From the IMG/VR virus record IMGVR_UViG_2563366978_000002, positions 1-42,648 of that record: a DNA stretch of 42,648 bases, one strand, 5' to 3'. Below the pieces are notes generated by a model. The model was not told the DNA's origin and did not search any database. It saw only the letters and a program-made list of their open reading frames with translations. Below, in pieces: positions 20,693 through 42,648 of the stretch (positions within the stretch are counted from its first letter, which is position 1; the number at the start of each line of letters is the position of its first letter). The stretch is from a virus (taxonomy: Duplodnaviria > Heunggongvirae > Uroviricota > Caudoviricetes). Position numbers and translations under genes: made by a program.

Positions 20693-20694
20693 AC

Positions 20695-21135: not shown

Positions 21136-22547
21136 CCTCGATTAATCCTATCTTTGAACCGTTCATTGAGGCGCATCGCTATAAAGTCGCCAAAGGCGGT
21201 CGAGGTAGCGGTAAGTCATGGGCAATCGCGAGGCTGCTTGTTGAAGCGGCGCGTCGGCAGCCGGTGCGTATTCTCTGCGCTCGTGAACTGCAAAACAGTA
21301 TCAGCGATTCGGTAATCCGGTTGCTTGAAGACACCATAGAGCGGGAAGGGTATTCGGCTGAGTTTGAAATTCAGCGTTCAATGATTCGTCATCTCGGAAC
21401 GAATGCTGAGTTCATGTTCTACGGCATCAAAAACAACCCGACGAAGATTAAATCGCTCGAAGGCATTGATATCTGCTGGGTGGAGGAAGCGGAAGCGGTA
21501 ACGAAGGAATCATGGGATATCCTGATACCAACCATCCGCAAGCCATTTTCCGAAATATGGGTGAGCTTCAACCCGAAAAACATCCTCGACGATACCTATC
21601 AGCGATTCGTAGTAAACCCTCCCGATGATATTTGTCTGCTGACGGTGAACTACACCGACAACCCGCACTTTCCTGAAGTTCTCCGTCTGGAGATGAAAGA
21701 GTGCAAACGCAGAAATCCGACACTGTATCGTCACATCTGGCTTGGTGAGCCGGTAAGCGCAAGTGATATGGCAATCATCAAACGTGAATGGCTTGAAGCC
21801 GCAACCGATGCGCACAAGAAACTCGGATGGAAAGCGAAAGGTGCGGTTGTTTCTGCGCATGACCCGTCAGATACAGGGCCAGATGCTAAAGGTTACGCAT
21901 CGCGTCACGGTTCGGTGGTTAAGCGCATTGCCGAAGGTCTGCTGATGGACATCAACGAGGGTGCTGACTGGGCTACTTCGCTGGCGATTGAAGACAGCGC
22001 TGACCATTACCTGTGGGATGGTGATGGCGTCGGTGCGGGGCTACGCAGACAGACAACGGAAGCATTCTCCGGTAAGAAAATCACCGCCACGATGTTCAAG
22101 GGCAGTGAATCGCCATTCGATGAAGATGCGCCGTATCAGGCCGGAGCATGGGCTGATGAAGTCGTACAGGGCGACAACGTTCGCACTATTGGTGATGTGT
22201 TCCGCAATAAGCGAGCGCAATTCTATTACGCGCTGGCTGACAGGCTGTATCTGACATATCGGGCGGTTGTCCACGGTGAGTATGCAGACCCCGACGACAT
22301 GCTGAGCTTCGACAAAGAAGCGATAGGCGAGAAGATGCTGGAGAAGCTGTTTGCAGAACTGACGCAGATTCAGCGCAAATTCAATAATAACGGGAAGCTG
22401 GAGCTTATGACTAAGGTCGAAATGAAGCAGAAGCTCGGTATCCCATCTCCTAACCTGGCTGATGCGCTGATGATGTGTATGCATTGCCCGGAGTCGGCTG
22501 CGCAACCCGACTATTCCAGTTACTCAATTCCTTGTGGTGTAGGTTGA
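21132..22547 (+). CDS. Terminase large subunit (headful-packaging ATPase/nuclease, P22/Sf6 gp2-like)
   Basis: 471-aa ORF with Walker A (KGGRGSGKSWA) and C-terminal nuclease-like region; precedes the portal gene. Confidence 0.85.
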   Translation: MTSINPIFEPFIEAHRYKVAKGGRGSGKSWAIARLLVEAARRQPVRILCARELQNSISDSVIRLLEDTIEREGYSAEFEIQRSMIRHLGTNAEFMFYGIKNNPTKIKSLEGIDICWVEEAEAVTKESWDILIPTIRKPFSEIWVSFNPKNILDDTYQRFVVNPPDDICLLTVNYTDNPHFPEVLRLEMKECKRRNPTLYRHIWLGEPVSASDMAIIKREWLEAATDAHKKLGWKAKGAVVSAHDPSDTGPDAKGYASRHGSVVKRIAEGLLMDINEGADWATSLAIEDSADHYLWDGDGVGAGLRRQTTEAFSGKKITATMFKGSESPFDEDAPYQAGAWADEVVQGDNVRTIGDVFRNKRAQFYYALADRLYLTYRAVVHGEYADPDDMLSFDKEAIGEKMLEKLFAELTQIQRKFNNNGKLELMTKVEMKQKLGIPSPNLADALMMCMHCPESAAQPDYSSYSIPCGVG

Positions 22548-22548
22548 T

Positions 22549-24747: not shown

Positions 24748-24837
24748 TTAACCCATAACGTGCAATGGCTGTCTTTATGAGGCCTGGCACCCTATTGCCT
24801 TCCGATGGGCTGAACATCGAGTAAACAGGGGTAAAAA

Positions 24838-25731
24838 ATGGACCAGATGGCAGAAAACACACCAGAAGTTGAAATCGAAACCGACGCGTCAGAGCAGATT
24901 CCTGATGATGTCGAACTGGCTGAAGAAGTCGAAACAGCAGATGGCAGTGAGTCCTCAGGAAATGATGCAGAGGAAGCTACTGACACTGATGACGACGAAT
25001 CAGAACAGGAATTCTACTTTGGTGACGAAAAGCTGGATTCGCCAACCAGCGAAGATGGAGCTGAGCATGGACTGGTAAAACACTTGCGCAAGACGATTAA
25101 AGAGAAAGACCGCGAGCTGAAAGAGCTGATGCGTCAGTCTCAGAAACCCGTCGAGCAGCAGCCGGTAATCACTCAACCACCGCGAATGCCAAAACTGGAC
25201 GATGAGGACATCGGTTTCGATGAAGAAATCTACCAGCAACGCATGGCTAAGTGGGCAGAGGATAACGGCAAATACCAGGAGCAAGTACGAGAGCGGAAAC
25301 GAGAGGAAGAGGCGCGTACCGCAACGCTTCAGCAGAAAGCAGCCAATTACATGCAGAGAGTAAAAGCACTGAAAGTGGCTGGCTACCAGGATGCAGAGCA
25401 GGCTGTACGCGAAGATGTTCCTGTTCATATTCAGGACATGATCCTTCTTGAGTCAGAGAAGCCGGAAATCGTTGTTCTGGCGCTCGGTCGCAACGCTGAA
25501 CTGCGCAAGCAACTGGCAGAAGCTACCAACCCCGTAGCAATTGGTCGTCTGCTGGAACGTATCGAATCGAAGGCCAGAATCATGCCAAAAGCAAAAACCA
25601 CGGCAGCCACAACCCCGACAGTTAAGGGGAGCAACGGCGCAGTAATCAACAACCTCGACAAATTGAAAGCCAAGGCGCTGGAAACTGGTGACTGGACGCC
25701 GTATTTCGCCGCTAAAAAGGCAAAAAAATAA
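24838..25731 (+). CDS. Scaffolding protein (P22 gp8-like)
   Basis: 297-aa acidic, helical-looking protein between portal and coat genes. Confidence 0.7.
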   Translation: MDQMAENTPEVEIETDASEQIPDDVELAEEVETADGSESSGNDAEEATDTDDDESEQEFYFGDEKLDSPTSEDGAEHGLVKHLRKTIKEKDRELKELMRQSQKPVEQQPVITQPPRMPKLDDEDIGFDEEIYQQRMAKWAEDNGKYQEQVRERKREEEARTATLQQKAANYMQRVKALKVAGYQDAEQAVREDVPVHIQDMILLESEKPEIVVLALGRNAELRKQLAEATNPVAIGRLLERIESKARIMPKAKTTAATTPTVKGSNGAVINNLDKLKAKALETGDWTPYFAAKKAKK

Positions 25732-25749
25732 CCTATCGGAGCATTAAGC

Positions 25750-27003
25750 ATGGCTAACCAATTAGCAAAAGACCTTGAAATCATGTTCGAAAACTACGTT
25801 GAAGGCTTTGAGGCCGCCTGCGTAGTTTCCCGTAACGCTAAAAAATTCCGTCCCGGTGATACAGCAATGCAGCGAGCAGGTGATGTTCTGTATCGTCCGC
25901 AGCATTACCACATGAACATTGAGGAAGGCCTCGATCTCAGCAGCAAAACGCCTACAGCACTGGTTCAGCGCCTTGTTCCTTCTGTGTTCAAGGAGCCGAA
26001 AAACATTCTGTACACTCTGGATGCGCGTGAAATGCGTGACCCTGAGCATAAAACTGAAGCTGGTCGCGCCGCAGGTATGCGCCTTGCTGCACAGATTGAC
26101 TCTGACCTGATTTCCATGGTTACGCAGCGTGCTACTAACGTGATCACAATGTCTGACTCAACCACAGGTACACAGGGCCGTGATTTGTGGAACTGTGCGG
26201 CAGGTATTGATGCCACCATGACGGCGATTGGTGTACCGCAGGGTATCAACCGTCGCTCTTTCTGGAACCCCTTCAACTACAAAGACCTTGCTGGCGAGCT
26301 TGGTCACCGTGCCTACGCTCAGGGCGCAACCCTGACAGCATACGAAAAAGCGCAGATCCCTCCGGTTGCTTCCTTTGATAGCTACAAGACCGATATTTCT
26401 GGTCGATTACCGAAAGGAAGCGCTGAATCCTTGACAGTATCAGGCCAACCTGAACACAAGGTTGAAGCGAAAGATTCAAATGGTATGCCAGTTGATAACC
26501 GACAGGGGACTATTACGGTATCTGCATCTGGCTTGCAGGTTGGTGATGCGTTCACCATTGCCGGTGTGAATTCCGTACACCAGATCACAAAAGATACCAC
26601 CGGGCAACCGCAGGTATTCCGTGTTCTGGCTGTTAGCGGAACTACCGTAACAATCTCTCCAAAGATTCTCCCTGTTGAAAATACCGATGTTGCGAGTCGT
26701 CCATATGCAAACGTCGATGCCAAACCGGCAGAATCAGCAGCAATCACCATTCTCAACAAGAACGCAGCACCTGCTAACCTGTTCTGGGCTGATGGTTCTG
26801 TTGAGCTGATGTACGGCAAACTAGCGTTCCCGACTGGTCAGGGTCCACAGGTAATGACAGCAACCACCGAGCAGGGCGCTACGCTGATCATGTCTTACGC
26901 CTTCGACCACATCAAAGGCGTAACCACTGCTCGTTTCACCACTCTGTACGGTTGCTCTGTACTTGTTCCTGAATATACGGGCATCGTTATTGCCGGGCAG
27001 TAA
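25750..27003 (+). CDS. Major capsid (coat) protein, P22/Sf6 gp5-like
   Basis: 417-aa ORF at the conserved position; ...FWADGSVELMYGKLAFP... parallels P22 coat ...FWADDAIRIVSQPIP... as recalled; followed by a strong terminator. Confidence 0.8.
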   Translation: MANQLAKDLEIMFENYVEGFEAACVVSRNAKKFRPGDTAMQRAGDVLYRPQHYHMNIEEGLDLSSKTPTALVQRLVPSVFKEPKNILYTLDAREMRDPEHKTEAGRAAGMRLAAQIDSDLISMVTQRATNVITMSDSTTGTQGRDLWNCAAGIDATMTAIGVPQGINRRSFWNPFNYKDLAGELGHRAYAQGATLTAYEKAQIPPVASFDSYKTDISGRLPKGSAESLTVSGQPEHKVEAKDSNGMPVDNRQGTITVSASGLQVGDAFTIAGVNSVHQITKDTTGQPQVFRVLAVSGTTVTISPKILPVENTDVASRPYANVDAKPAESAAITILNKNAAPANLFWADGSVELMYGKLAFPTGQGPQVMTATTEQGATLIMSYAFDHIKGVTTARFTTLYGCSVLVPEYTGIVIAGQ

Positions 27004-27007
27004 TTTT

Positions 27008-27032
27008 GGTGGGGCTTCGGCCCCATTTTTAT
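27008..27032 (+). terminator. Intrinsic terminator after the coat gene
   Basis: GGGGC-TTCG-GCCCC hairpin followed by ATTTTTATT. Confidence 0.6.
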
Positions 27033-27044
27033 TGGGAGAAGACA

Positions 27045-27233
27045 ATGGCACGAACAATGCTCTATAAGCCTGGCAACATGATCACCTGTGGTCAGTTTGC
27101 TGTCGATTACATCATTGTTGATGACGAAGAAGTTAAATCTCACCTGAAAAAAGGTTGGGTAAAAACTCCTGAAGAAACCGCAACGAAGCAAAAAGTGGCT
27201 AAGGCGGAAGAAGATGGCGAAAACGAAGGGTGA
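27045..27233 (+). CDS. Hypothetical small protein
   Basis: ATG at 27045 preceded by GGGAGAAG; 62 aa; overlaps the gp4-like start. Confidence 0.35.
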   Translation: MARTMLYKPGNMITCGQFAVDYIIVDDEEVKSHLKKGWVKTPEETATKQKVAKAEEDGENEG

Positions 27234-27675
27234 TCTCGTTCTAAAGGCTTTACGAAAAGCCGGGCTGTATTCCAATGCCACGTTGACAGATGCCGACCCT
27301 CAGGCAATTGAAGATGCCATTAATGACCTTGAAGACATGATGGCAGCATGGCAGGCGAAAGGTATCGAGCTTGGATATCAGTTTGCGGATACAGAAAACG
27401 GCATCATGCCGTTACCTGACGATGATTCAGGTATCCCTGCATGGGCAAATGATGGCGTCGCTTTGAAACTCGCTGTGCAAGTGTGCATGGATAACGTCAT
27501 TCAGCCGTCGGATGCTCTCCTTACCGCTGCTGACAGCGCATATCAGACAATCTGCATCGCTTTAACCAAAATACCACCACTTGAGCGGCGAAATGACATG
27601 CCTCGCGGTAGTGGTAACAAAAGCGCGTTTACGTGGAATCGGTTTTACATCGAGAAAGATGATCCGAGTACGTGA
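27214..27675 (+). CDS. Head-to-tail adaptor / tail accessory factor (P22 gp4-like)
   Basis: 153-aa ORF MAKTKGDLVLKALRKAGLYSNATLTDADPQAIEDAINDLEDMMAAW... resembles P22 gp4 (...[44 protein letters not shown]...) as recalled. Confidence 0.8.
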   Translation: MAKTKGDLVLKALRKAGLYSNATLTDADPQAIEDAINDLEDMMAAWQAKGIELGYQFADTENGIMPLPDDDSGIPAWANDGVALKLAVQVCMDNVIQPSDALLTAADSAYQTICIALTKIPPLERRNDMPRGSGNKSAFTWNRFYIEKDDPST

Positions 27676-27684
27676 GGTGAATAA

Positions 27685-29103
27685 ATGCCGATTCAGCAAC
27701 TTCCGCTCATGAAAGGTGTCGGCAAAGACTTCCGAAATGCCGACTATATCGACTATCTACCAGTGAATATGTTGGCTACACCCAAAGAAATCCTTAACAG
27801 CAGCGGATATCTTCGCTCATTCCCGGGCATTGCCAAACGCTCTGATGTAAACGGTGTATCGCGCGGAGTCGAGTACAACATGGCGCAGAATGCTGTTTAT
27901 CGCGTGTGTGGTGGGAAGCTTTACAAAGGCGAAAGCGAAGTCGGTGACGTCGCCGGAAGTGGTCGCGTATCAATGGCGCATGGTCGGACATCTCAGGCTG
28001 TAGGTGTTAATGGTCAACTGGTCGAGTATCGCTATGATGGCACGGTTAAAACCGTCTCAAACTGGCCTACAGACAGCGGATTCACACAGTACGAGTTAGG
28101 TTCAGTTCGCGACATTACGCGCTTACGTGGGCGTTATGCGTGGTCAAAAGACGGAACTGATTCATGGTTTATCACTGACCCTGAAGACGAATCGCACCCT
28201 GACCGATACAGTGCACAATATCGTGCCGAGTCTCAGCCTGACGGTATTATCGGCATCGGAACATGGCGAGACTTCATCGTCTGCTTTGGTTCATCGACGA
28301 TTGAATATTTCTCCCTGACTGGTGCAACCACAGTTGGTGCTGCTTTGTATGTCGCACAGCCATCGCTGATGGTGCAAAAAGGCATCGCCGGGACTTACTG
28401 CAAAACGCCGTTTGCTGATTCCTATGCGTTTATCAGCAATCCGGCAACAGGTGCGCCGTCTGTATACATCATCGGCTCCGGTCAGGTGTCACCAATCGCC
28501 AGCGCGAGCATTGAGAAAATCCTCCGCTCCTACACTGCTGATGAACTGGCTGATGGCGTGATGGAATCGTTGCGCTTTGATGCGCATGAGTTGCTGATTA
28601 TCCATCTTCCGCGCCACGTACTCGTGTACGACGCATCTTCAAGCGCCAATGGTCCGCAATGGTGTGTGTTGAAAACAGGCCTGTATGACGATGTGTACCG
28701 CGCTATCGACTTCATTTACGAAGGCAATCAGATAACGTGCGGCGATAAGCTGGAATCTGTTACCGGGAAACTGCAGTTCGATATCAGCAGCCAGTACGAC
28801 AAGCAACAGGAACACCTGCTGTTTACTCCACTCTTCAAAGCAGATAACGCCAGAGTTTTCGACCTTGAAGTTGAATCTTCAACTGGCGTTGCGCAGTATG
28901 CTGACCGCCTTTTTCTCTCTGCAACCACTGACGGCATCAATTACGGGCGTGAGCAGATGATTGAGCAGAATGAACCGTTCGTTTACGACAAGCGCGTTTT
29001 GTGGAAGCGAGTCGGGCGCATCAGGAAAAATGTTGGCTTCAAATTGCGCGTTATCACGAAGTCACCTGTAACTCTGTCTGGTGCTCAGATAAGGATTGAG
29101 TAA
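27685..29103 (+). CDS. Tail accessory factor / packaged-DNA stabilisation protein (P22 gp10-like)
   Basis: 472-aa [52 protein letters not shown]..., very similar to P22 gp10 as recalled. Confidence 0.9.
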
Positions 29104-29951
29104 TGGCGGATTCATCACTGAATAATCCTGTCGCGGTTCAGGCTACGCGCCTTGATACTTCAATTTTGCCACGCAATATATTTAGCCAGTCTTACCTGCT
29201 GTATGTCATAAATCAAGGTGCTGATGTCGGCGCAATTGCCGGGAAGGCAAATCAGGCCGGACAGGGCGCTTATGATGCACAGGTCAGGAACGATGAGCAG
29301 GATGTGATTCTCGCTGACCATGAGCAGCGAATTTCTGCTGCGGAAGCAACGCTTGTTAATCATGAGGAGCGAATCAGCCAGGCAGAATCAACTCTTCAGG
29401 AACATGAAACACGAATATCTCAGAATGAAAGCGATATTGCGTCGCTTGATACCAGAGTTCAGTCGCTGGAGTCGCAGGTTTCAGATCATGAATCGCGCAT
29501 TGATGCTCTGGAGTATGCAACCACGCGCAAGAAGTCAGAGGTTGTTTACTCTGGCGTATCAGTAACCATTCCGACAGCGCCGACCAACCTTGTTAGCCTA
29601 CTGAAAACGCTCACGCCGTCATCCGGCTCGTTGGCACCATTCTTCGACACCGTTAACAACAAGATGGTTGTGTTCAACGAGAACAAAACCTTGTTCTTCA
29701 AGCTGTCGATCGTCGGGACGTGGCCCAGCGGAACCGCCAACAGGTCAATGCAGCTAACCTTTTCCGGCTCTGTCCCTGACACACTGGTAAGCAGTCGCAA
29801 CTCGGCGACAACGACCGATAACATCCTGTTAGCTACGTTCTTCAGCGTGGATAAAGACGGCTTTCTTGCCACAAATGGCAGCACGTTAACCATTCAGTCG
29901 AATGGTGCGTCGTTTACTGCCACAACCATCAAAATCATTGCGGAGCAGTGA
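29103..29951 (+). CDS. Tail needle protein (P22 gp26-like N-terminus with a different C-terminal knob, Sf6-like)
   Basis: 282-aa ORF; N-terminus [61 protein letters not shown] matches P22 gp26 as recalled; heptad coiled-coil middle; divergent C-terminal ~120 aa. Confidence 0.85.
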
Positions 29952-30430
29952 TGGAAATAAAGCTCATCGATAATCCGGTGAAGCTTGCAGAATTCCTCAA
30001 CAACCCAGCAAATACGGGGAATATCGTAGATAGCGGGGATTCGTATCTCATCAAGCATGATGCGCTATACCTTGGAATCTATGAAGGACTGATGCTGGTC
30101 GGAGTGCATGAAGTGCGAAACTTCTGGCATAGCGTTGTTGAATGCCATGCGGTGTATGACCCCGGATTCCGTGGAGAATATGCACTGCAAGGGCATCGAT
30201 TATTCTGCAAATGGCTTCTCGAAAACTCACCATTCCTTAACAGCATCACCATGGTTCCTGACACAACGAAATACGGACGGGCAATTATCCGTTTGCTTGG
30301 CGCTACCCGTGTTGGTCACCTTGATGATGCTTATACCAGCAATGGAAAGCCTGTAGGCATCACGATTTATCAGTTACCGCGCTCAAAATACGAGGAGCTA
30401 ACGAATGTTAATTTTCCAGATTGCCAATAA
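29948..30430 (+). CDS. gp14-like head assembly/ejection-associated protein
   Basis: 160-aa ORF at the position of P22 gene 14 (between tail needle and ejection-protein genes); assignment is positional. Confidence 0.5.
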
Positions 30431-31079
30431 GCACCTCAGCAAAACTGTTTACTGCAAAGGTGGCAGTGATGGTGGTTCAAAAGCCCAGGCACGCGCAACT
30501 GAAAAGGGCATCGAACTGCAGCGTGAAATGTGGCAGACGAATATGCAAAACCTTGCACCGTTCACGCCACTCGCTCAGCAGTACGTATCACAGTTGCAGA
30601 ATCTTTCCTCTCTTCAGGGGCAAGGTCAGGCGCTTAACCAGTATTACAACTCTCAGCAGTATAAAGACCTTGCAGGTCAGGCGCGCTATCAGAGCCTGGC
30701 AGCAGCAGAGGCAACTGGTGGATTAGGCTCTACAGCGACAGGAAACCAGTTAGCAGCAATCGCACCTACACTCGGTCAAAACTGGCTGTCAGGTCAGATG
30801 AACAACTACAACAATCTGGCAAATATCGGCCTTGGTGCTCTTACAGGTCAGGCAAACGCCGGGCAGAACTACGCTAACAACGTCAGCCAATTGTATCAAC
30901 AGCAGGCGGCGGCAGCGGCAGCAAATGCGAATAAGCCTTCAGGCCTACAGAGTTTTGCTACAGGTGCCATTGGTGGGGCCGCATCAGGTGCAATGATTGG
31001 TAGTGCAGTTCCTGTTATTGGGACTGGTATTGGTGCCCTTGCTGGCGGTGTTATCGGTGGTCTTGGATCATTGTTTTAA
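30405..31079 (+). CDS. Ejection (injection) protein, gp7-like
   Basis: 224-aa ORF, GAGGAG RBS; Gln/Ala/Gly-rich low-complexity protein with Gly-rich hydrophobic C-terminus, at the position of P22 gene 7. Confidence 0.6.
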   Translation: MLIFQIANKHLSKTVYCKGGSDGGSKAQARATEKGIELQREMWQTNMQNLAPFTPLAQQYVSQLQNLSSLQGQGQALNQYYNSQQYKDLAGQARYQSLAAAEATGGLGSTATGNQLAAIAPTLGQNWLSGQMNNYNNLANIGLGALTGQANAGQNYANNVSQLYQQQAAAAAANANKPSGLQSFATGAIGGAASGAMIGSAVPVIGTGIGALAGGVIGGLGSLF

Positions 31080-31088
31080 GGTGGGAAT

Positions 31089-32363
31089 ATGGCTACTTGG
31101 CAACAAGGAATCAACTCAGGCGGCTTTCTTGCTGGTATCGGTGGGCAAAACTCAAATGCGCCAAAGGCAAGTGATGTAAGTGAGGCGTTGGCCTATATTC
31201 GCCAGAACAACGAAATGGAGCGCTCAGGTCGCAATAACATCGGCCTTCAGGCGTTGCAGGGGCTTGGTAGTGTCGCTCAAACATATCAAGCCGCAAAGCA
31301 ACAGGAAGCGGATGCTGCATTCCAAAAAGAATATGCGGCAGCCATCCAGTCAGGTGATCGACAGCAGGTGCGAGATTTGATGACCAAATATCCTGGTCAA
31401 TTAGAGAAGATTCAGTCTGGCATGAAGTGGGCAGACGAAGACCAGCGTGATGAAATTGGCAATCTAGCGGCAGGCGGTCAAATTGCCTCCATGATGGGTG
31501 GTGATGCATTTAGCAAGTGGATTGGAAACAATGCAACCAGATTGTCTAATCAGGGGGTAGACCCACAACAACTCCTCAGTATGTATCAAAAAGACCCACA
31601 AGCAACATCACAACTTATCGGACAATATGGTCAGTTTGCATTAGGCCATGAAAAGTATTGGGATTTGCAGGACAAGATGGTTGGTCGCCAGCAGGAGCAG
31701 CAAAGAATTAACGAAACAATCCGTAATAATGACATGACAAATGCCAGAGGGTGGGCAAGCAACAATATTGCGCAACAAAATGTCAATCTTCGTCGAATGG
31801 AATTAGAGGACAAGAAATACGACAGACTCATCGCAAATGAAACTAATGCCTTAAAACTTGCTGAATTGCAGGACAAGAGATTGCAGAATCAGCAAGCTAT
31901 GGAGCAGGCAAAGCGAGATAAGGCTGATGCGTACAACTCTGGAATGGATAATCTTTCCAGAACGATAGAGACGGCTACAAAAGTTCTTAATAGCCCGGGT
32001 TTCACGGGATATTTCGGAACAAACCTAAACCCACTATCGAGTAGATTCATTCCAGGAACGGAGGCTGCTGATACAGAAACTCTGGTTGACACACTGAAAT
32101 CTCAGGGATTCTTATCTGGCATTCAGCAGATGAAAGGGATGGGGGCTTTAAGTAATGCCGAGGGGCAAAAGGTAATGGATGCTATTGGTAGTTTGTCCCC
32201 AAATCAGTCTGAAAAATCAGCCAGAGCAGCTATCAAAACAATCATAAAAACCACTGAGATGGCTCAGAAACGTATGCAACAGAAATACGGGAAGGACATA
32301 CAACCGTCTCAACAGCAGCTTTCTGATGATGACCTGATTAATAAATATCTCGGAGGGCAGTAA
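31089..32363 (+). CDS. Ejection (injection) protein, gp20-like
   Basis: 424-aa Gln-rich protein at the position of P22 gene 20. Confidence 0.6.
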
Positions 32364-34483
32364 TGGCCTATAGTCGTGAACAGTTGATGACGGCGTTAAG
32401 GAATGCTGATGCTGCCGGCGATACTGAGGGAGCACGTCGCATTGCTCAGATGCTGTCTTCTGATGATCAATCCACTCAAAACCAATCGCAGCCAGAAGAA
32501 CAATCTCTGGTAGGAAAAGCTACTGACTGGCTCACTGGTGGTCAAAGTGCAGGGCAAATTGCAGAACAGGCTGGTCGTGGTCTGGTAAACATACCATTTG
32601 ACGTATTGCAGGGTGGCGCAAGTCTGATTAATGCAATCAGCCAGGGGCTTGGTGGCCCCAAGGTTTTGGATGATGTCTATCGTCCAGTCGATCGACCGAC
32701 AGACCCTTACGCGCAAGCCGGTGAAACAATTGGTGGGTATCTCCTGCCAATTGGCACAGCGGCAAAAGCTGCTGGAGCGCCAGCAAAGCTCGCAGGAGAC
32801 ATCGGTTCAGCAGGAAACATGATTGCCGGTTCTCTTGCTGATGCTGCAAATCAGGAGGGTGATTTTGCACAAAATGCTGCCATTAACGGTGGTATCAATA
32901 TTGGTGCTCAAGGCGTTCTTTCAGGTGTCGGGCGCGTTATTGCCCCAAGAGTTTCACAGGCTCTTGGTGGTGCAGCACTGAATTCTGCTAATGATGTTTC
33001 GAAAATGGCAAAGTCTGGTACAGGAAGAGAGATTATTGCCAGACAGTCAGCTAACGTGTCAGACGAAATAGCAAAAGCAGCAGATACTGCTGGAATAGAT
33101 ATCAACGCATTAACTCCTGGCATGAGATCAGGTAGTCGTGGTCTTGCTCAGGCGGAGGGGATTCTGGCGTCAAAGCCCGGAATTACACAGGATGCACACA
33201 CCAAAGCATTCAGTGAAATAGAGTCGAAATTTAACTCAGCATTGGATGAGTTTGGGGCTGAAGCAGGAACTGCATCAGAAAAAAGTGCAGCCATAAAACA
33301 GAGGGTTTTGGCAAGCATTGATAAAATGAAAAATTCAGAAAAGGCCGCATGGGATAGCGTCCGCTCCACGATGCCTGACGCAAAGGCCAGAATGTCAAAC
33401 CTGAACGCTACAATTCAGGGTGATATTTTGGCTGGCATGCCGCTAACTCCTGAGATGAAACAATTCGCATCTGCTTATGCTAAAACTGGTAAAAAAGGAA
33501 TCACGTTTGATGCCATGAAGGCATGGCGAAGTAAACTTGCTGACGCAGAGCAGAAGTATATAAGGTCTGGTGAGGCAAATACGGCAAGGCGCATGGCTGA
33601 GCTTCGTGATGCAGCAACGGAAGATATGCGCATAATGGCTCAAAATGGCGGTTTTCTTGATGACTGGCAAAAAGCTAATGACCTGTCAAAGGCAAGATTT
33701 ACAGCACAAGAACAGGCTGAAGCAGCGTTTGGCAGAGACCTTGCAACTGATCAGTTGGTAAATAATGGCTCTAAGGCGTTACAGGGCTCAGCAAAAAGTG
33801 GAACAGGTCAGTTCCATAAAATAATAAGCGCCCTACCTGAGTCGGAACGCGCGCCAGCAATTGCATCAATATTACAAGATGCAATGTCGCAAGGGGTACG
33901 CGGAGGTAAGTCCGAAGAGGCTGGAATTAAGCATATCGCGACTATTCTTACCCCACAAAACGTGAAGGCAATTAGTCGATATTCTCCAGAACTTGGCAGG
34001 ATTACAAGTTCATACGGAGAACTTGCAAGAGCAGCAACAAAGCCACTTCGATATGTTGAACAGACAGGGCGATCTATGCCAGCCATTAGCACTCTTGAGA
34101 ATGGCCTTCATCCAGTTTTAGAGAGCGCATTGTCTGGCGCTTTTAGAACTACTGGCACTATCGCAGGGTTCTCTGGAGGAGGCGTTATTGGAGCAATAGC
34201 GGGTGGCGCTGCAGGTGGAGCAATTGATGCAATGGCAAAAGGAGCGATAGCGAAATTATCCGCAACTAGAAGCGGTCGTTACGCTATTGAAAAGGCTGTT
34301 CAAGAGGCAACAAAGGCAGTTAAGGTTGGGGCAAGTGATGGTGCATTAGCGGCGGCGGAACGCAGATTTATGGCAAATAAGGCCGCCGTAAAAGCAATAC
34401 GCGAGGCACTAGGAAACGAAGAGTTCCAGCGTTTAGCAAGGGCTGGAATTGTGGCATCGCTAAGCGGAATGGCACAGGAGTAA
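32363..34483 (+). CDS. Ejection (injection) / DNA transfer protein, gp16-like
   Basis: 706-aa Ala/Gly-rich protein at the position of P22 gene 16, last gene of the rightward structural operon before the immI region. Confidence 0.6.
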
Positions 34484-34813
34484 TTAGTCATCCATGGATG
34501 GATTGAGCTTATCTCGTGTTGATGTGGCAATTTTCCCAACATTTTTCAACCAAGATTTTAAGAAGGATATGTCGTCCTTAATATCATGAATATCCTCATT
34601 CTTTATACGATCAACCTTATCCTCTAGGCTCTCTATAGAACGCTCAATGCTAGACAGAGAGATTTTTAAGTCTCCTTGATCACGTTCCAGTGAGGATTTG
34701 AGAGCACAATATTCGTTTTCTAGAATTCCTATTTTTTTTGTTAGAGAGTGCATTCGATACTCATACACCAAACCAGAAACGACTAATGCAGCCAACAGAA
34801 ACCATTCAAGCAC
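34484..34813 (-). CDS. Small membrane-anchored coiled-coil protein (moron; candidate exclusion/effector component)
   Basis: 109-aa ORF, GTG start preceded by AAGGGGG; N-terminal hydrophobic helix LEWFLLAALVVSGLVYEY then heptad-like region; AT-rich; 20 nt downstream of the YafO-like gene. Confidence 0.5.
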   Translation of the reverse strand: MLEWFLLAALVVSGLVYEYRMHSLTKKIGILENEYCALKSSLERDQGDLKISLSSIERSIESLEDKVDRIKNEDIHDIKDDISFLKSWLKNVGKIATSTRDKLNPSMDD

Positions 34814-34835
34814 ACTAACCCCCTTAGTTGATATT

Positions 34836-35255
34836 TTATTTGTATGAAATCAACGAGTTAAGCTCCCTCTCATTTAGAGATTGGAATCTTTTTTCAGTTA
34901 TATCAATGATGGCTGGCAATAGTTTTTTTACCTTCTCATGACCATCAGGTTTAATGATAGCAATGATCTGGATATGAATTGGATATGTGTTGTGTACCGC
35001 AAATATCAAAAAGTTATCGCTAACTCTACGATGTATTGGCGTTGTTTTTAACCAAGGATCATCTACTCCAGGGATCCTGATGTGCGACTTGTAAATTCCC
35101 GATAAGACGGCGTGATGGTTTCTCTCAAACCCACCAATCTTACCAAGATAAGCTGAAACGGTGCCTCTGTTTTTGTAGTTTGCAAGAGCCTTCGCAAAGT
35201 ATTGTTCTAATGGTCCAGCCGCTGCATCTACAACAATGCTTATGCGGTTTTCCAT
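34836..35255 (-). CDS. YafO-like putative toxin (ribosome-dependent mRNA interferase family) - tentative
   Basis: 139-aa basic protein; ...IHIQIIAIIKPDGHEK... resembles the ...LLIAILKPEPH... region I recall from E. coli YafO; start ATG lies inside the last codons of the upstream gene (translational coupling). Confidence 0.45.
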   Translation of the reverse strand: MENRISIVVDAAAGPLEQYFAKALANYKNRGTVSAYLGKIGGFERNHHAVLSGIYKSHIRIPGVDDPWLKTTPIHRRVSDNFLIFAVHNTYPIHIQIIAIIKPDGHEKVKKLLPAIIDITEKRFQSLNERELNSLISYK

Positions 35256-35839
35256 TTTGGTGCTTCCATGCCAAATCTTTTATGTGAATCTTCAACTGAT
35301 TTCTTGAATGAAGCCAACTCTTCTTCAGTGAACTCTTCAGGTTCAGCATATGATAGTGGTATGTGCTGCATTGCTAGCGTCACAAGCCCCATAGTTAGCC
35401 TTTTGTATTCTATAAAAGTATTTATTGAGTGGTTTTTCATTGTTGTAAGAGTTGACATATGGGGCTTCCACGCATCGCTGTTCTCAGCGATGAAGAAGGT
35501 ATACAACAGTTTCGCGATACCATAATCAAGCTTAGATATTTGATCGTTCAACATATCTACATCGTCATGTTGAATATCAAGTGAGGAAATATCTTCTTCC
35601 GTACCATTACTTAATATGTCAATGAATGTAATGTACTTTTTGCAAACTTCCTCTACAGGTGACATAACGCAGTAGATCTTGCTAAGAGCTTCAGAAGCCT
35701 GTTTTTTAGACAAAGAGCCGCTATGACTGCGATCAAAGTCTGAAATTGAACGCTCGATAGATGTTGATATGTCAGAAAAAACGTTTTCAATTTTTCCTGG
35801 CTCTTGATTCAGGATGGCCATAACGCCTATCTCAATCAC
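35240..35839 (-). CDS. Hypothetical acidic protein, upstream partner of the YafO-like gene (candidate antitoxin/immunity or sensor)
   Basis: 199-aa ORF (alternative ATG at 35821); no TM segments; 16-nt overlap with the downstream gene; 43 nt downstream of the mnt stop on the same strand. Confidence 0.5.
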   Translation of the reverse strand: MIEIGVMAILNQEPGKIENVFSDISTSIERSISDFDRSHSGSLSKKQASEALSKIYCVMSPVEEVCKKYITFIDILSNGTEEDISSLDIQHDDVDMLNDQISKLDYGIAKLLYTFFIAENSDAWKPHMSTLTTMKNHSINTFIEYKRLTMGLVTLAMQHIPLSYAEPEEFTEEELASFKKSVEDSHKRFGMEAPKWKTA

Positions 35840-35881
35840 AATGTATACCTTGTTATTTTATATCAACGAACAAACATTGAC

Positions 35882-36130
35882 CTATCTGGTCTCGTACATT
35901 TTTTTCAGGGTTTCAAACACCATCTTCTTAACAATTTCTGCTTGCTGATCAGCCAAGCGTTCAGCTTCGTCTCGATAGCCTGCAATCGGTGATGGCTTTG
36001 AGAGAGCATCCTGAACGATTTGTAATAACTCAGAGTTCATTGACCTTCCGTTAGCCTCTGCTCTTAATTTCAATTTTTCTCTTACTTCCAAAGGCATACG
36101 GAAGTTAAAGTGCGGATCGTCTCTAGCCAT
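35882..36130 (-). CDS. mnt: Mnt repressor (ribbon-helix-helix, P22 immI)
   Basis: 82-aa ORF MARDDPHFNFRMPLEVREKLKLRAEANGRSMNSELLQIVQDALSKPSP... matches P22 Mnt as recalled. Confidence 0.9.
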   Translation of the reverse strand: MARDDPHFNFRMPLEVREKLKLRAEANGRSMNSELLQIVQDALSKPSPIAGYRDEAERLADQQAEIVKKMVFETLKKMYETR

Positions 36131-36152
36131 GCCATCACCCCAAGTTAGTGTA

Positions 36153-36204
36153 TTGACATGATAGAAGCACTCTACTATATTCTCAATAGGTCCACGGTGG
36201 ACCT
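36153..36204. promoter_or_regulatory. immI control region: pant -35/-10, Arc operator and Mnt operator
   Basis: TTGACA (36153..36158); ATGATAGAAGCACTCTACTAT (36158..36178) matches the P22 arc operator as recalled; palindrome AGGTCCACGGTGGACCT (36188..36204) matches the P22 mnt operator. Confidence 0.8.
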
Positions 36205-36220
36205 ATATTGTGAGGTGAAT

Positions 36221-36379
36221 ATGAAAGGAATGAGCAAAATGCCGCAGTTCAATTTGCGGTGGCCTAAAGAAGTATTGGATTTGGTGCGTAAGGTGGCGGA
36301 AGAGAACGGGCGATCTGTTAACTCTGAGATTTACAAGCGAGTGATGGACAGCCTGAAGAGAGAGGGGATTACGGTATGA
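36221..36379 (+). CDS. arc: Arc repressor (ribbon-helix-helix, P22 immI)
   Basis: 52-aa ORF MKGMSKMPQFNLRWPKEVLDLVRKVAEENGRSVNSEIYKRVMDSLKREGITV, near-identical to P22 Arc as recalled. Confidence 0.9.
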   Translation: MKGMSKMPQFNLRWPKEVLDLVRKVAEENGRSVNSEIYKRVMDSLKREGITV

Positions 36380-36645
36380 AGGTGTCATTGCTTGATCGTT
36401 CTTTACAATTTTTGTCTGGCGCAATCATTGTAGTTTGCTTGCTCGTGATTTTTACATCGTTAATAAATATGTATCAATCAGGGGAACGATTGACAAAGAC
36501 GATAGAGGAAAAAAAATCAGTCTCAAATTACGAAGTATCACATGCACATAACGATTTAGTAGAAAGCCTTGACCGTATTAACAAGAGGCTTGACGAGACA
36601 AATATGCTACTTAAGCAAATTCAAAATGAAGTGGAAAAACGTTGA
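36376..36645 (+). CDS. Small membrane-anchored coiled-coil protein inserted between arc and ant
   Basis: 89-aa ORF with ATGA overlap with the arc stop; N-terminal hydrophobic helix (FLSGAIIVVCLLVIFTSLI) and coiled-coil-like C-terminus; AT-rich. Confidence 0.5.
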   Translation: MKVSLLDRSLQFLSGAIIVVCLLVIFTSLINMYQSGERLTKTIEEKKSVSNYEVSHAHNDLVESLDRINKRLDETNMLLKQIQNEVEKR

Positions 36646-36675
36646 AGCCCCAACTGCGGGAACAGTCAGGGCTTC
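36635..36675 (-). terminator. Minus-strand intrinsic terminator, candidate 3' end of a sar-like antisense RNA
   Basis: Minus-strand hairpin GAAGCCC...GGGCTTC followed by U5 (plus-strand AAAAA at 36635..36639); located just upstream of the ant start on the opposite strand. Confidence 0.4.
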
Positions 36676-36708
36676 GGTATCGTAAAACCACGCATAGGAA
36701 TTAACGAC

Positions 36709-37632
36709 ATGAAAAGTATAGCAACAGCAGTATCTACTATCAATGTACCATTCCACGGCGCAGAGCTTTATGTTGTCAATCACAACGGTGAGCCGTACAC
36801 CCCAATGAAACCTATCGTTGAGGGAATGGGTATGGATTGGGCTTCACAGTTTACAAAGTTAAAACAAAGATTTGCTAAAGGTATTGTGGAAATCGCAATA
36901 CCTTCAGTTGGCGGTGTGCAGACCATGATTTGCCTTGCTTTACGTAAACTGAATGGCTGGTTGCAAACCATCAGCCCTAACAAAGTCCGCCCTGAAATCC
37001 GCGACAAGGTAATCCAGTATCAGGAAGAGTGTGACGATGTGCTATACGAGTACTGGACTAAAGGCCATGTAGTTAACCCACGCAAAGCTAAAAAGGCGTT
37101 GCCGGGTAAAATCACCACTGAACAGCAGGAAGCCATTAAACAACTCGTCATGAGTCGCGGTCAGTCTCTGCCAAAGGAAAAACAGGCTAAGGCGATGATC
37201 ACCATGTGGTCGTCACTGAAATCTCATTTTGGGTGTTCATACAAAGAAATCAGTGAGGAGCAGTTTACCGAAGCTCTGTCACTTGCAGCTCGCGTTCCGC
37301 TTGAAGGCGAGTTAATCGGCAAACAAGAGAAGAAAGCAAACGAGCTTTCTGCAAAAGAAGCAAACAGCCTTGTATGGTTATGGGATTATGCCAACCGCTC
37401 ACAGGCATTATTCCGCGAACTGTATCCGGCGCTAAAACAAATTCAATCGAACTATTCCGGCAGATGCTACGACTACGGTCATGAGTTCTCGTATGTTATC
37501 GGAATGGCGAGAGACGTTTTAATCAATCACACACGAGATGTTGATATCAATGAGCCAGACGGACCAACGAATCTTTCCGCATGGATGAGACTTAAGAATA
37601 AAGAATTACCTCCTTCAGTTCATAACTACTGA
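36709..37632 (+). CDS. ant: Antirepressor Ant
   Basis: 307-aa ORF downstream of arc in the immI operon, size close to P22 Ant (~300 aa); N-terminal domain resembles AntA-type antirepressor domains; followed by a strong terminator. Confidence 0.6.
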
Positions 37633-37651
37633 CAGATAACCAACGCAACGA

Positions 37652-37675
37652 CCCAGCTTCGGCTGGGTTTTTTTA
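37652..37675 (+). terminator. Intrinsic terminator after ant
   Basis: CCCAGC-TTCG-GCTGGG hairpin followed by a T8 run. Confidence 0.7.
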
Positions 37676-37732
37676 TGCCCAAAATTCACCGTAGCCATGC
37701 TGCGGCGATTCCTTGTATCTGGAGAAAATTAA

Positions 37733-40438
37733 ATGACAGACATTACAGCCAATGTTGTAGTGAGTATGCCTTCGCAACTCTTCACTATGGCGCGTTCTTT
37801 TAAAGCCGTAGCCAACGGCAAAATTTATATCGGAAAAATTGACACTGACCCGGTAAATCCTGAAAACCAGATTCAGGTTTATGTGGAAAACGAAGACGGT
37901 TCTCAAGTTCCTGTTTCTCAACCAATCATCATTAACGCTGCTGGTTACCCGGTATATAACGGACAGATTGCCAAATTCGTTACCGTGCAAGGCCATTCTA
38001 TGGCTGTTTACGATGCTTATGGCACTCAGCAGTTTTATTTTCCAAATGTATTAAAATACGATCCAGATCAGTTTGGCCCAGACTTCAAAGAGCAGTTATC
38101 TCAATCAGGAGCATACATTAATGATGATTCAAAAGGTGATGCATTAATTGGGGTAAGGCAGCCATTTACCGGGGCTGTAACTATAACTCAGCATGAAAAC
38201 AATGCTCTTTTCTTAAATGTAAAACAATTTGGAGCAATTGGGGATGGGAAATATCATCCATTATCTGAGTGGTTTTCTTCAATTTCTGAAGCAAAATCCT
38301 TATATCCTTTTGTTGACTCATTATCTCAGTCAATAGACTGGGCCGCGTGGCAAGCTGCCCTTAACACAGGAAAGGTTATTTATGGTACTGATAATGCGTA
38401 TGTAATAACGGATACGTTAACACCTGTTTCTGGTGGTGGGATAATTTGTCTTGGTGTGGGCAAATGGGTCTCAGGATATACTGCAACATTTGCTCCTGAT
38501 ATTACCACAGGGACCACATTCCTGATGTACGGGGTAGGAAATAAAAAATATACTGTAGATTGTGTTTCTAATATGGATGTTAGTGGTGGTGTGGTTTCTA
38601 ATCCATCTTCCGAAGACCCGTATACAACAACGGCACCTGCGTCATCATATGATTTATTGGATTTTACTAACGGTGATGCTAATGGGACTACAAGAGCCAC
38701 GCTTAAACCATTCTCTGCCGCAATATTGATGCCTGAGACAGGATGTGTTCGCCTTGAGAACTTTCGTGTTGTTCCATATTTCAATGGGCTGGATGGTTAT
38801 AAAGACATTGCAAATACCGGTCTTGGCGATGAGTGGGATGTAGGTATTTGGTCACGTGCGTCTTTTGGCAATGAATACCGCAATTTGCAGGTGGTTGGAT
38901 ACTGGCGCAAGACGGCACTTTTAAAAACGAACATTCCTGTATCTGGCACGCTGGCCGCTCAGGGCGAGGATGAAAACTATTATCACTGTAGATTCCAGGG
39001 ATTCAAGGGTATTTCGATCCGCGCCCATGATGTATTCCGAATTACAGCGGTAACGTCCAGCACTATCGAAATCCCATGGTCAGCAAGCCACACCTTCGAA
39101 ACGTCCGGGGTTTTAAGATCTGGAGGCAGGAATTTCACTTATTCAGGATTATCCGTATCCGGTGATAAGTTAGTATTTACTGGAGTGTCTAACGCTTCTG
39201 AGGCAACAGTAGGTTCTACTATACGGCGAAATGACATAGATAACTTTGGTATGGCGGGAACGCAATTTTTCGATTGCTACATTACCAGCCTGTATCACCA
39301 CACACATCTGCTTGCCACATCGCAATACCTGTCTCAACCATTCAGCCGACCATCAGAGTGTATGGAGGTTTCAGGGGAACCAGTTCGCGGTGTACAGGTA
39401 CATGCAGGAACCATTCAGGGATGGGATGATGTTCTTATTCATCTACATGACTGTGGAAATATGAACTTTTACAGTACATATTTCGAAAGCCAGCAAGCAT
39501 ATGTAACTATAAATGGTGGTAATGCTATTGGTTATGGAGCACGTATGATAGCTTCCCGGCAATCAACAAGCTCATTACCATATGCAGCAGGGAATACTCG
39601 AGTGCTTAGAATGGTCGGGTGCTCTGAAGGCAATGGCGTTGACTGGGGTCCTGTATTTAACAACTATACAGGAGGAAGATATAATTCTGGAGACGGTGTA
39701 TTTAACCCCCGCGATGCATTTATAGACCATAAATCTCTTCCTGAGCAGTCAGGAGGTGAGTCAAGACTCGTATCACAAAAAGGAAATGCCAGAGTAGTAT
39801 GTGGTGTTGGTAAAACTGTACTGCTTGGACCAACGTCAGGAGATTGTAATTTACAGAGTAATACTGGAAGTTTAAATATTAGAAGTGGGATAAGAGTAAG
39901 AATCGGTCACGCTGATGGAACAGACTGGTGGTTGGCAGATGCTAATAAAATAGCTCCTGTTGATGATAATGTTAAAGCTATTGGACAGCCATCAAACAGA
40001 TGCTCTGTTATTTATGCAGGAACCGGGTCAATCAATACATCAGATGAAACTCTTAAAACAAGATATGATATTCTTAATGCAGAGCGTGATGCCGCTATTG
40101 AAATAAAGTCAGTCATCTATAAATTTAAATTTAATGACTCAATTAATCACAAAGGAATTGAGTCGTCTAGGTATCATTTTGGCGTTGGCGCTCAAACCGT
40201 AGGGGATATTCTTAGAAAGCATGGTTTAAACCCTGAGCAATATGCTTTTTGGTGTTACGATGAATGGCCTGACGTATGGGATGAAGAGGTGATAACTGAA
40301 GAGAGCACAGATCCTGATACAGGTGAGAAAATTTATTCTCAATATAAAACAGGAGATATGATTCTTGTAAAAAAAGCAGGAGGACGCTACGGAATTCGTT
40401 ATGACGAATTGGCTATGTTTATATTAATGGCAATGTAG
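37733..40438 (+). CDS. Tailspike: P22 gp9-like N-terminal head-binding domain, distinct central receptor-binding domain, C-terminal autoproteolytic intramolecular-chaperone-like domain
   Basis: 901-aa ORF; first ~110 aa ([56 protein letters not shown]...VLKYDPDQ) match the P22 tailspike head-binding domain as recalled; last ~132 aa begin with SDETLK, resembling the Ser-Lys cleavage motif of chaperone domains. Confidence 0.85.
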
Positions 40439-40456
40439 TTGCAATAAATGCAGTAT

Positions 40457-40488
40457 ATCCCGCATAAAAACTGCGGGATTGTTTTTAT
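40457..40488 (+). terminator. Intrinsic terminator after the tailspike gene
   Basis: ATCCCGC-ATAAAAACT-GCGGGAT hairpin followed by TGTTTTTA. Confidence 0.65.
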
Positions 40489-40683
40489 CTGGTGTATTTA
40501 TGAATTTTAAGTAAATTTTAGTATGGATTACTGCATCGCAGTTAAAGCAGAATTACCTATGAGACAAAACTAAGGTACACAAAGCTTTGCACTGGATTGC
40601 AAGGCTTTGTGCTCTTCTGGAGTGCGACATGTTTTTGTGACAAAAAATTAGCGCAAGAAGACAAAAATCACCTTGCGCTAATG

Positions 40684-40842
40684 CTCTGTTACATGTCACT
40701 AATACCATCTAAGTGGTTGATTCATAGTGACTGGATATGTTGTGTTTTGTAGCATTATGTAGTCTATTTTTTAGACTGCAGATATTGTAACACATTGATA
40801 TTAATGGTTTTTAATGTTTCACGTTCAGCTTTTTTATACTAA
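40684..40842. repeat. attR: phage P arm plus 15-bp core (40828..40842)
   Basis: Lambda-like P arm with arm-type Int sites (e.g. CAGGTCACTAAT-like, AGTGACTG), then core GCTTTTTTATACTAA and bacterial B' sequence CTTGAGCG. Confidence 0.85.
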
Positions 40843-41517: not shown

Positions 41518-42648
41518 ATGAAACGCGCATATAAATACCGGTTTTACCCGACAACTGAGCAGGCTGAGCTTTTAGCTCAGACGTTTGGCTGTGTGCGCTT
41601 CGTCTACAATTCCATCCTTCGTTGGCGTACCGATGCGTACTACGAGCGAAAAGAAAAGATCGGTTATCTACAGGCCAACGCTCGCCTTACGGCGCTCAAA
41701 AAAGAGCCTGAATACATATGGCTGAATGATGTTTCCTGCGTTCCCCTCCAGCAGTCGTTGCGCCACCAACAAGCCGCCTTTGCTAACTTCTTTGCCGGAC
41801 GAGCTGCATATCCGGCTTTCAAAAGCAAACGGCACAAACAGGTGGCTGAGTTCACTGCCAGCGCGTTTAAACACCGTGACGGCGAGTTGTATATAGCAAA
41901 GAGCAAGTCGCCGCTGGATGTTCGCTGGAGTCGAGAATTACCATCTGCGCCGTCAACCGTTACCATTTCCAGAGATAGCGCTGGCAGGTACTTTGTTTCC
42001 TGCCTGTGTGAGTTTGAACCTGTATCAATGCCTGTTACCGCTAAAACGGTCGGCATTGATGTGGGCTTAAAAGATTTATTCGTCACCGATACCGGATTCA
42101 AAACCGACAATCCCCGCCACACCGCTAAATATGCGAAGCGATTAACGCTGCTACAGCGACGTTTAAGCAGGAAGCAAAAAGGCTCAAGAAACCGTATTAA
42201 AGCCCGCTTAAAGGTCGCCCGACTCCACGCGAAAATCGCCGATTGCCGGATGGACAATCTGCACAAGTTGTCCCGCAAACTGATTAACGAAAACCAAGTT
42301 GTTTGCGTCGAATCCCTCAAGGTGAAAAACATGATCCGCAACCCGAAGCTGTCTAAAGCAATAGCTGACGCAGGCTGGAGCGAACTTGTTCGCCAGCTCC
42401 AGTACAAAGGCAAATGGGCCGGGCGGTCAGTGGTCGCCATTGACCAGTATTTACCGTCCTCAAAATGCTGTAGTTGCTGCGGTTTCACCATGCAAAAAAT
42501 GCCTCTTAATGTTCGTAAATGGCACTGCCCTGAATGCGGCGCAGACCATGATCGCGACATTAACGCGGCACGTAATATTAAAGCTGCCGGGCTGGCAGTG
42601 TTAGCCCACGGAGAGCCTGTAAACCCTGAATCGCAGCACGCGGCTTAG
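41518..42648 (+). CDS. tnpB: IS200/IS605-family accessory protein TnpB (OrfB; RuvC-like RNA-guided nuclease family)
   Basis: 376-aa ORF with OrfB N-terminal region (MKRAYKYRFYPTTEQAELLAQTFGCVRFVYN), RuvC-like core and C-terminal zinc-finger CxxC...CxxC (CCSCCG...CPECG); stop codon is the last 3 nt of the window. Confidence 0.85.
   Translation: MKRAYKYRFYPTTEQAELLAQTFGCVRFVYNSILRWRTDAYYERKEKIGYLQANARLTALKKEPEYIWLNDVSCVPLQQSLRHQQAAFANFFAGRAAYPAFKSKRHKQVAEFTASAFKHRDGELYIAKSKSPLDVRWSRELPSAPSTVTISRDSAGRYFVSCLCEFEPVSMPVTAKTVGIDVGLKDLFVTDTGFKTDNPRHTAKYAKRLTLLQRRLSRKQKGSRNRIKARLKVARLHAKIADCRMDNLHKLSRKLINENQVVCVESLKVKNMIRNPKLSKAIADAGWSELVRQLQYKGKWAGRSVVAIDQYLPSSKCCSCCGFTMQKMPLNVRKWHCPECGADHDRDINAARNIKAAGLAVLAHGEPVNPESQHAA

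Follow-up and report, generated by a model that had tools for sequence, protein, structure and literature searches.

Domain architecture of the tailspike gene

The stretch analyzed here, referred to as the window, is 42,648 nucleotides long and carries a P22/CUS-3-like podophage prophage of E. coli; the subject of this report is its tailspike gene at 37733..40438. The open reading frame (ORF) list reproduces exactly the plus-strand, ATG-initiated protein of 901 amino acids (aa) given by an initial annotation made from the nucleotide letters. The gene and its parts are as follows.

37733..40438, plus strand: tailspike gene; ATG start, intact ORF, 901 aa plus stop, 98.4-kDa precursor
37733..38071, plus strand: head-binding (virion attachment) domain, aa 1-113; PF09008 over the full model, E=1.3e-66
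38072..38131, plus strand: linker/neck, aa 114-133, Sf6-like, holding the recombination junction with the receptor module
38132..39937, plus strand: receptor-binding and putative depolymerase module, aa 134-735, composed of a cap, a right-handed parallel beta-helix (~aa 160-665, predicted) and a distal region
39938..40039, plus strand: last part of the stalk, aa 736-769, with D745 and R756, ending at the predicted scissile bond T769/S770; aligns with the stalk ends of endoNF and T5 pb1
40040..40435, plus strand: intramolecular chaperone/Peptidase_S74, aa 770-901, 15.3 kDa, with S770 and K775; identified by PF13884, PDB and Foldseek

The evidence supports a modular P22-like tailspike in which a head-binding domain is joined to an exchangeable, putative depolymerase and to a presumably self-cleaving S74 chaperone, in a CUS-3-type layout. 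Over its whole length (aa 1-901) the protein matches phrog_1171, 'tail spike protein' (E=2.8e-256, PHROGs), showing that the full-length architecture is already catalogued; RefSeq names the ~99% identical copies 'phage tailspike protein', and no NCBIfam family was matched. The domain matches in Pfam and PDB lie far beyond chance, as judged by their E-values, and junctions within the tailspike fall at aa ~113, ~133 and ~748.

The resemblance of the first ~110 aa to the P22 head-binding domain was borne out by the PF09008 match and by 76% identity to P22 gp9 (85/112), with Sf6 gp14 (104/113, 92%) and CUS-3 (96.5%) closer still. Sequence matches in PDB are to the head-binding domains of Sf6 and P22, those to P22 chains ending at aa 121. 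By PF09008, the N-terminal anchor is that of a P22-like (Lederbergvirus) tailspike of the gp9 type.

The guanine-plus-cytosine (GC) content of the gene is 41.8%, compared with 47.6% for the prophage and ~50% for the head genes. The central domain had been called AT-rich, which holds relative to the prophage mean (43.8% versus 47.6% GC) but not within the gene, where it is the most GC-rich segment; the remark is only loosely right, since the neck (38.2% GC), stalk (37.3%) and chaperone (36.4%) are more AT-rich than the center.

C-terminal chaperone and predicted autocleavage

The last 132 aa begin with SDETLK at aa 770 and are, by profile, PDB sequence match and predicted fold, a bona fide S74-type intramolecular chaperone, in agreement with their initial description. 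PF13884 (Peptidase_S74) matches aa 770-832 with 23.0 bits against a cut-off of 22, and PF12219, which models the endosialidase stalk, matches aa 735-769 through its last 35 positions with 22.8 bits against a cut-off of 25. The last 181 aa match the solved chaperones of Kp7 gp51 (7y5s, E=6.5e-23), endoNF of K1F (3gw6, E=1.9e-14), T5 pb1 (4uw8, E=5.8e-12) and GA-1 gp12 (3gud, E=2.5e-9), as well as 9vvr and 6eu4. In both AlphaFold2 models the chaperone has a predicted local distance difference test score (pLDDT) of ~80-95 (85-95 over aa 775-901 in the better one), and Foldseek retrieves 3gw6 (E=1.6e-10), 4uw8 and 3gud, the last with a target TM-score (template modeling score) of 0.73.

In T5 pb1, the autocleavage machinery comprises Asp1239, Arg1250 of the neighboring chain, Thr1263, Ser1264 and Lys1269, and the chain is cut between Thr1263 and Ser1264 only after the triple beta-helix has formed correctly (PMC4690869). 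Counted through the alignment, these residues correspond to D745, R756, T769, S770 and K775, so that all five are conserved here; the first three, upstream of the catalytic pair, would sense correct folding of the trimer. S770 and K775, both within 'TSDETLK', form the S-x4-K motif; in the alignments with 3gw6 and 4uw8, Ser-to-Ala mutants that do not cleave, S770 is opposite the mutant alanine and K775 opposite the lysine. By homology, autocleavage is predicted at T769/S770; because the five T5 residues are aligned and conserved, the 98.4-kDa precursor would yield an 83.1-kDa chain (aa 1-769) and a 15.3-kDa chaperone (aa 770-901).

Of the 11 S74-bearing homologues in alignment A1, 10 retain the DRTSK pattern, while the remaining one, P0073, has DRTCK. 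This 930-aa protein carries Cys at the catalytic Ser position ('NTCDGREKT'), which might make its autocleavage site a thiol variant.

A C-terminal domain that is S74-like and does not cleave, staying on the mature spike as a distal binding or stabilizing tip, would accord with the marginal Pfam score, the Cys of P0073 and the other C-termini borne by some family members. Such retention is nevertheless very improbable: none of the five mechanism residues is lost, and each aligns with its counterpart in endoNF and T5 pb1, for which cleavage is experimental; purifying selection also acts on the domain, and a tailspike that otherwise differs has it at 89% identity.

The central beta-helix module

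The part following the head-binding domain had been described as unlike the P22 endorhamnosidase. At the sequence level this is correct: the P22 endorhamnosidase domain gave no Pfam match at E<=1 and no PDB sequence match beyond aa 121. At the level of predicted fold it is not, as both belong to the right-handed beta-helix class, Foldseek retrieving also the tailspike of Sf6 and that of P22 (2xc1, E=2e-6). Structure prediction, one of the checks proposed initially, gave a right-handed beta-helix for the center by AlphaFold2 and Foldseek; pLDDT over aa 160-660 was ~80 in a model built from 18 sequences and exceeded 90 over most of that range in a model built from 54 diverse homologues.

Sequence searches of PDB returned no solved relative for aa 250-730. 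When the family profile was compared with PDB sequences, matches were confined to the cap and the chaperone, with none in the helix body; the cap (aa 157-249) matches phi297 gp27 (E=3e-27) and LKA1 gp49 (E=4e-23). Residues 203-726 match phrog_33794, a PHROG without assigned function. An exhaustive HMMER search put the family at 1,339 clusters, formed at 50% identity, for a threshold of E<=1e-3 and at 420 for E<=1e-10. In a homologue search with a profile of distant members, the matches listed were all near-identical E. coli copies, and the alignment became no deeper. Of 54 diverse family members, 23 match PF12708 (pectate-lyase-like), 25 match Peptidase_S74 and two match the P22 head-binding domain. 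The module thus fits its initial description as a swapped depolymerase of unknown glycan specificity, being a predicted depolymerase-type beta-helix without a close characterized relative.

Across the 54 diverse homologues, which share 25-45% identity, D369, G389, R430 and E585 are invariant, and conservation is 90% or higher at D202, R345, Y356, D433, H522, E545 and R552. We propose D369 and E585, and with them D433 and E545, as candidates for the catalytic residues. Alternatively, the central module might serve as an adhesin only, one that attaches to a glycan or protein on the surface but leaves it uncut, like some beta-helix proteins and tail fibers. That no catalytic motif is verified and that the query itself matches no Pfam beta-helix enzyme would suit such a role. 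We consider it unlikely, because the four candidate residues are invariant or at least 90% conserved at such low overall identity, and because characterized P22-like tailspikes are receptor-destroying (PMC5380687, PMC3303846).

Two more specific assignments of the putative depolymerase were rejected. An endosialidase identity fails because the center bears no similarity to that of CUS-3 and its predicted fold is a beta-helix; of PF12219 only the last 35 positions were matched, below threshold. The label 'putative endo-N-acetylneuraminidase' on the database copy P0157 is accordingly unsupported; the shared chaperone domain is its probable origin. The name of phrog_8280 hints at specificity for colanic acid, but this reading was discarded as well, the match being limited to aa 1-187, that is, to the shared anchor and cap.

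Prophage setting

The prophage is a P22/CUS-3-like podophage genome with a lambda-type integrase, and it occupies the classical attλ site, with ybhC and ybhB on either side. The 15-bp lambda att core GCTTTTTTATACTAA has two exact matches in the window, with 0 expected by chance. The features that frame the tailspike gene are listed below.

1331-1345: attL, exact lambda att core GCTTTTTTATACTAA
1419-2489, minus strand: lambda-type integrase, 355 aa translated, with lambda Arm DNA-binding domain
35882-36130: mnt, preceding the tailspike, P22 immI layout
36158-36379: arc, preceding the tailspike, P22 immI layout
36709-37632: ant, preceding the tailspike, P22 immI layout
37686..37732, plus strand: conserved leader of 47 nt that includes a ribosome-binding site (GGAG); the mobile tailspike cassette has its left edge here
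40457..40479, plus strand: terminator-like hairpin 3' of the tailspike, within the conserved 3' flank (to ~40617)
40828..40842, plus strand: attR core, exact lambda att core GCTTTTTTATACTAA

The tailspike is the last prophage gene before attR and follows mnt, arc, a small membrane ORF and ant, in the P22 immI layout; it thus comes after immI and closes a P22-like virion gene block, the position of gp9-type genes. CUS-3 covers 76% of the block 20000-37732 at 93.9% identity. Between the tailspike stop codon and attR (40439-40827, 35% GC), no O-antigen- or capsule-modifying gene of the gtr, oac or neuO type was found. The host flanks consist of a ybhC-like pectinesterase gene on the left and of ybhB on the right, followed by tnpB of the IS200/IS605 insertion sequence (IS) family.

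Other genes were noted along the window. The small ORF between arc and ant (36376-36645, plus strand, 89 aa) has a start overlapping the arc stop and no Pfam match; its sequence reads as hydrophobic in an N-terminal segment and as charged in the C-terminal part. Between the ejection-protein genes and immI, the ORF at 34836-35255 (minus strand) matches a YafO-toxin Pfam family (E=1e-11) and may provide a prophage-carried toxin or exclusion function; its CUS-3 equivalent is annotated as hypothetical. Two adjacent prophage-borne tRNA genes, tRNA-Asn(GTT) at 17830-17904 and tRNA-Thr(TGT) at 17910-17985 (plus strand), lie in mid-prophage. The tnpB gene (41518-42648, plus strand), which runs off the window end, encodes an IS200/IS605-family TnpB with OrfB_IS605 and Cas12f1-like TNB domains. 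Its insertion between ybhB and bioA is the same in UPEC_U013, where the order is tailspike-ybhB-tnpB-bioA, and is absent from 702/18.

Distribution, modularity and selection

A survey of 5,426 complete E. coli genomes found some match to the tailspike in 1,119, mainly to the head-binding domain, and most of the gene in 15. The full 901-aa gene is present in eight genomes at 98.7-99.3% identity, annotated as 'phage tailspike protein' and in one case split by an IS3 element; in seven genomes the best listed match covers only nt 399-2705, inside a 991-aa protein. The notion that ~1,100 genomes share both ends of the gene was rejected: the chaperone cassette occurs in only 35, so most of these matches represent the head-binding domain alone.

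Local DNA alignments delimit what is exchanged. With the gene for the 991-aa protein, which is of the epsilon15 type, homology spans window positions 38131-40488, starting from codon 133, and with the copy of CH10508, whose prophage differs and lies at argW, it spans 37686-40617. The same allele is found at attλ (this window, UPEC_U013 and 702/18), at argW (CH10508), adjoining vat (DLL7555 and AHB29) and beside another integrase (SBF22), giving at least four contexts in total. The receptor module and chaperone occur on three virion anchors (P22-type, epsilon15-type and T7-type), and Vectrevirus phages carry 42%-identical versions. Alleles differ mainly synonymously, with a ratio of non-synonymous to synonymous substitution rates (dN/dS, omega) of ~0.1-0.3, indicative of purifying selection.

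Four complete genomes (DLL7555, 702/18, SBF22 and AHB29) contain two copies of the chaperone cassette, against 0.016 expected if the copies were independent (hypergeometric P=6e-10). In 702/18 and one other genome, a P22-type copy and the 991-aa protein are both present, and the P22-type copies of the four genomes occupy three different sites. We infer that each genome pairs a P22-type with an epsilon15-type tailspike bearing the same module, which, if true, would point to strong receptor-driven convergence. The pattern fits a module matched to a receptor common to the carrier strains, although some of the genomes may share ancestry.

In 702/18 (L013:3501-7551), the tailspike at attλ is split by an IS3-family element, and RefSeq lists two partial proteins. 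This disruption, together with the frameshifted neighboring ant and truncated integrase of DLL7555, would be expected if the gene were a decaying remnant of a defective prophage with no functional product in this strain. Decay of this kind is quite improbable for the present copy: its ORF is intact and so is the lambda-type integrase, both att cores are present, the set of P22-like virion genes is complete and 94% identical to that of CUS-3, and dN/dS between alleles is 0.1-0.3.

Carrier serotypes and the glycan target

The rfb locus of YDC107 contains O102 wzx and wzy, in line with its published type O102:H6/ST964 (sequence type 964; PMC6035167), and that of CH10508 contains O86 wzx and wzy; DLL7555 belongs to ST73 (PMC13494036), and two database copies come from strains named O153:H34. 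Searches of the complete genomes with wzy-wzx segments found O102 in 107 and O86 in 80, with one known carrier each among the 60 matches listed. In CH10508 (L007:5506-6904), the annotation gives the O86 wzy a frameshift and an internal stop, while its DNA is 100% identical to that of many O86 genomes; the frameshift may be an annotation artifact or a lineage-wide feature.

P22-like tailspikes target either O or K antigens (PMC3303846), and given the mixed carrier O types, a capsule or another glycan stays a candidate target. We tentatively raise the possibility, less likely than not, that the beta-helix module recognizes a non-O-antigen surface polysaccharide, such as a K capsule or a glycan common to extra-intestinal E. 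coli lineages of different O types. If so, it would be the founding characterized member of a large depolymerase family of 1,339 clusters, none of which is characterized.

Proposed mechanism and significance

Taken together, the gene probably encodes the receptor-recognizing tailspike of a P22/CUS-3-like temperate podophage, built of three exchangeable parts, with its folding, cleavage, attachment and glycan degradation presumptive. By homology, the 98-kDa chains would trimerize through their S74 chaperone domains (aa 770-901), which would template folding of the stalk and beta-helix. In a correct trimer, R756 of the neighboring chain, D745 and T769 would form the oxyanion hole, K775 would activate S770, and the self-cut at T769/S770 would free the 15-kDa chaperone. 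As in P22 and Sf6, the mature 83-kDa trimer would then dock on the tail via the head-binding domain (aa 1-113). Judging from its fold and family, the beta-helix module (aa ~134-735) would bind host O antigen or capsule, and the bound polysaccharide would most likely be cleaved, allowing the virion to arrive at the outer membrane.

The homology boundaries further suggest that the cassette 37686-40617 passes from one prophage to another through recombination in conserved flanks, the left one being the leader and head-binding domain and the right one the chaperone and terminator. The receptor module and chaperone would likewise have been grafted onto epsilon15-type and T7-type N-termini.

Several points weigh against this interpretation. 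The query itself falls short of every Pfam beta-helix model, such as PF12708 and PF13229, and the Pfam S74 score exceeds its gathering cut-off by a marginal 1 bit. The monomer models are weak at aa 668-771 and at the N-terminus. The best structural neighbors are a mix of hydrolases, lyases and epimerases, so the chemistry is not readable from the fold; likewise, the carriers differ in their O-antigen loci (O102, O86, O153 by record name, and an ST73 strain), so no substrate is assignable. Moreover, all four steps, namely cleavage, trimerization, attachment to the virion and glycan breakdown, are inferred.

The locus offers a clean example of tailspike cassette exchange, with junctions mapped to within a few codons. 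Once its glycan substrate is identified, the module could serve as a depolymerase or retargeting domain, and the predicted cleavage site tells where to truncate constructs; an O104 prophage tailspike has already been fused to a pyocin for retargeting (PMC3303846).

Comparison with known tailspikes

The Sf6 and P22 tailspikes share the anchor. Similarity to Sf6 gp14 does not stop at the head-binding domain but takes in the neck and the beta-helix cap as far as aa 175, and both endorhamnosidases (Sf6 gp14 and P22 gp9) have the beta-helix fold class predicted here, whereas the catalytic helix body is without sequence similarity. The present protein is also longer (901 aa versus 623 in Sf6 and 667 in P22), and to our knowledge neither of those tailspikes has a cleaved S74 chaperone. 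The O-antigen tailspikes phi297 gp27 and LKA1 gp49 of Pseudomonas phages resemble the cap by profile (E=3e-27 and 4e-23), but they belong to another host genus, have other N-terminal anchors and a helix body unalignable by sequence, and aa 770-901 of the query find no match in their chains. The chaperones of endoNF (K1F), T5 pb1, Kp7 gp51 and GA-1 gp12 share fold, family and the same Ser-Lys and Asp/Arg/Thr positions, at ~20-40% identity and with other receptor domains attached.

The closest relatives of the receptor module sit on other anchors. E. coli YDC107 and its relatives have an epsilon15/phiV10-type tailspike (991 aa, 'tail fiber domain-containing protein') in which the counterpart of aa 134-901 is 99% identical, but the first 222 aa are an epsilon15/phiV10 anchor (73-77% identity) rather than a P22 head-binding domain, and the gene belongs to a different prophage type, with a lysis cassette following it. 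Escherichia phage YZ1, a lytic cultured Kayfunavirus (K1F-like T7 relative), encodes in gp35 (972 aa, annotated as a hypothetical protein) a 77.5% identical center with a homologous stalk and chaperone behind a T7-type tail-fiber N-terminus. The literature held no receptor data for YZ1, KMB14 or LF31P3.

The nearest characterized system is the endosialidase tailspike of CUS-3 (siaK1, E. coli K1 prophage). It has the same three-part layout and the same genomic slot, after ant as the last gene; its head-binding domain is 96.5% identical, its S74 chaperone carries TSDxTLK at 36-42% identity, and the other virion genes are 94% identical. The centers are unrelated: the CUS-3 endosialidase, a GH58 beta-propeller, is replaced here by a predicted pectate-lyase-fold beta-helix. 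CUS-3 also carries neuO downstream of the tailspike, while no surface-modifying gene follows here. The CUS-3 tailspike was described by Stummeyer et al. 2006, as cited in GenBank CP000711 and PMC5380687; its N-terminus is common to P22, Sf6 and HK620, and its catalytic domain to K1F (PMC5380687).

Because its layout is that of the characterized CUS-3 endosialidase tailspike, the architecture described here is ordinary, and current understanding is unchanged, as both architecture and mechanism were already established; only this particular beta-helix module, without a characterized close relative, is new. Host-range swapping by such modular tailspikes is well known, and the present case is real but ordinary: the pair formed by this window and YZ1 mirrors the published pair of CUS-3 and K1F (PMC5380687).

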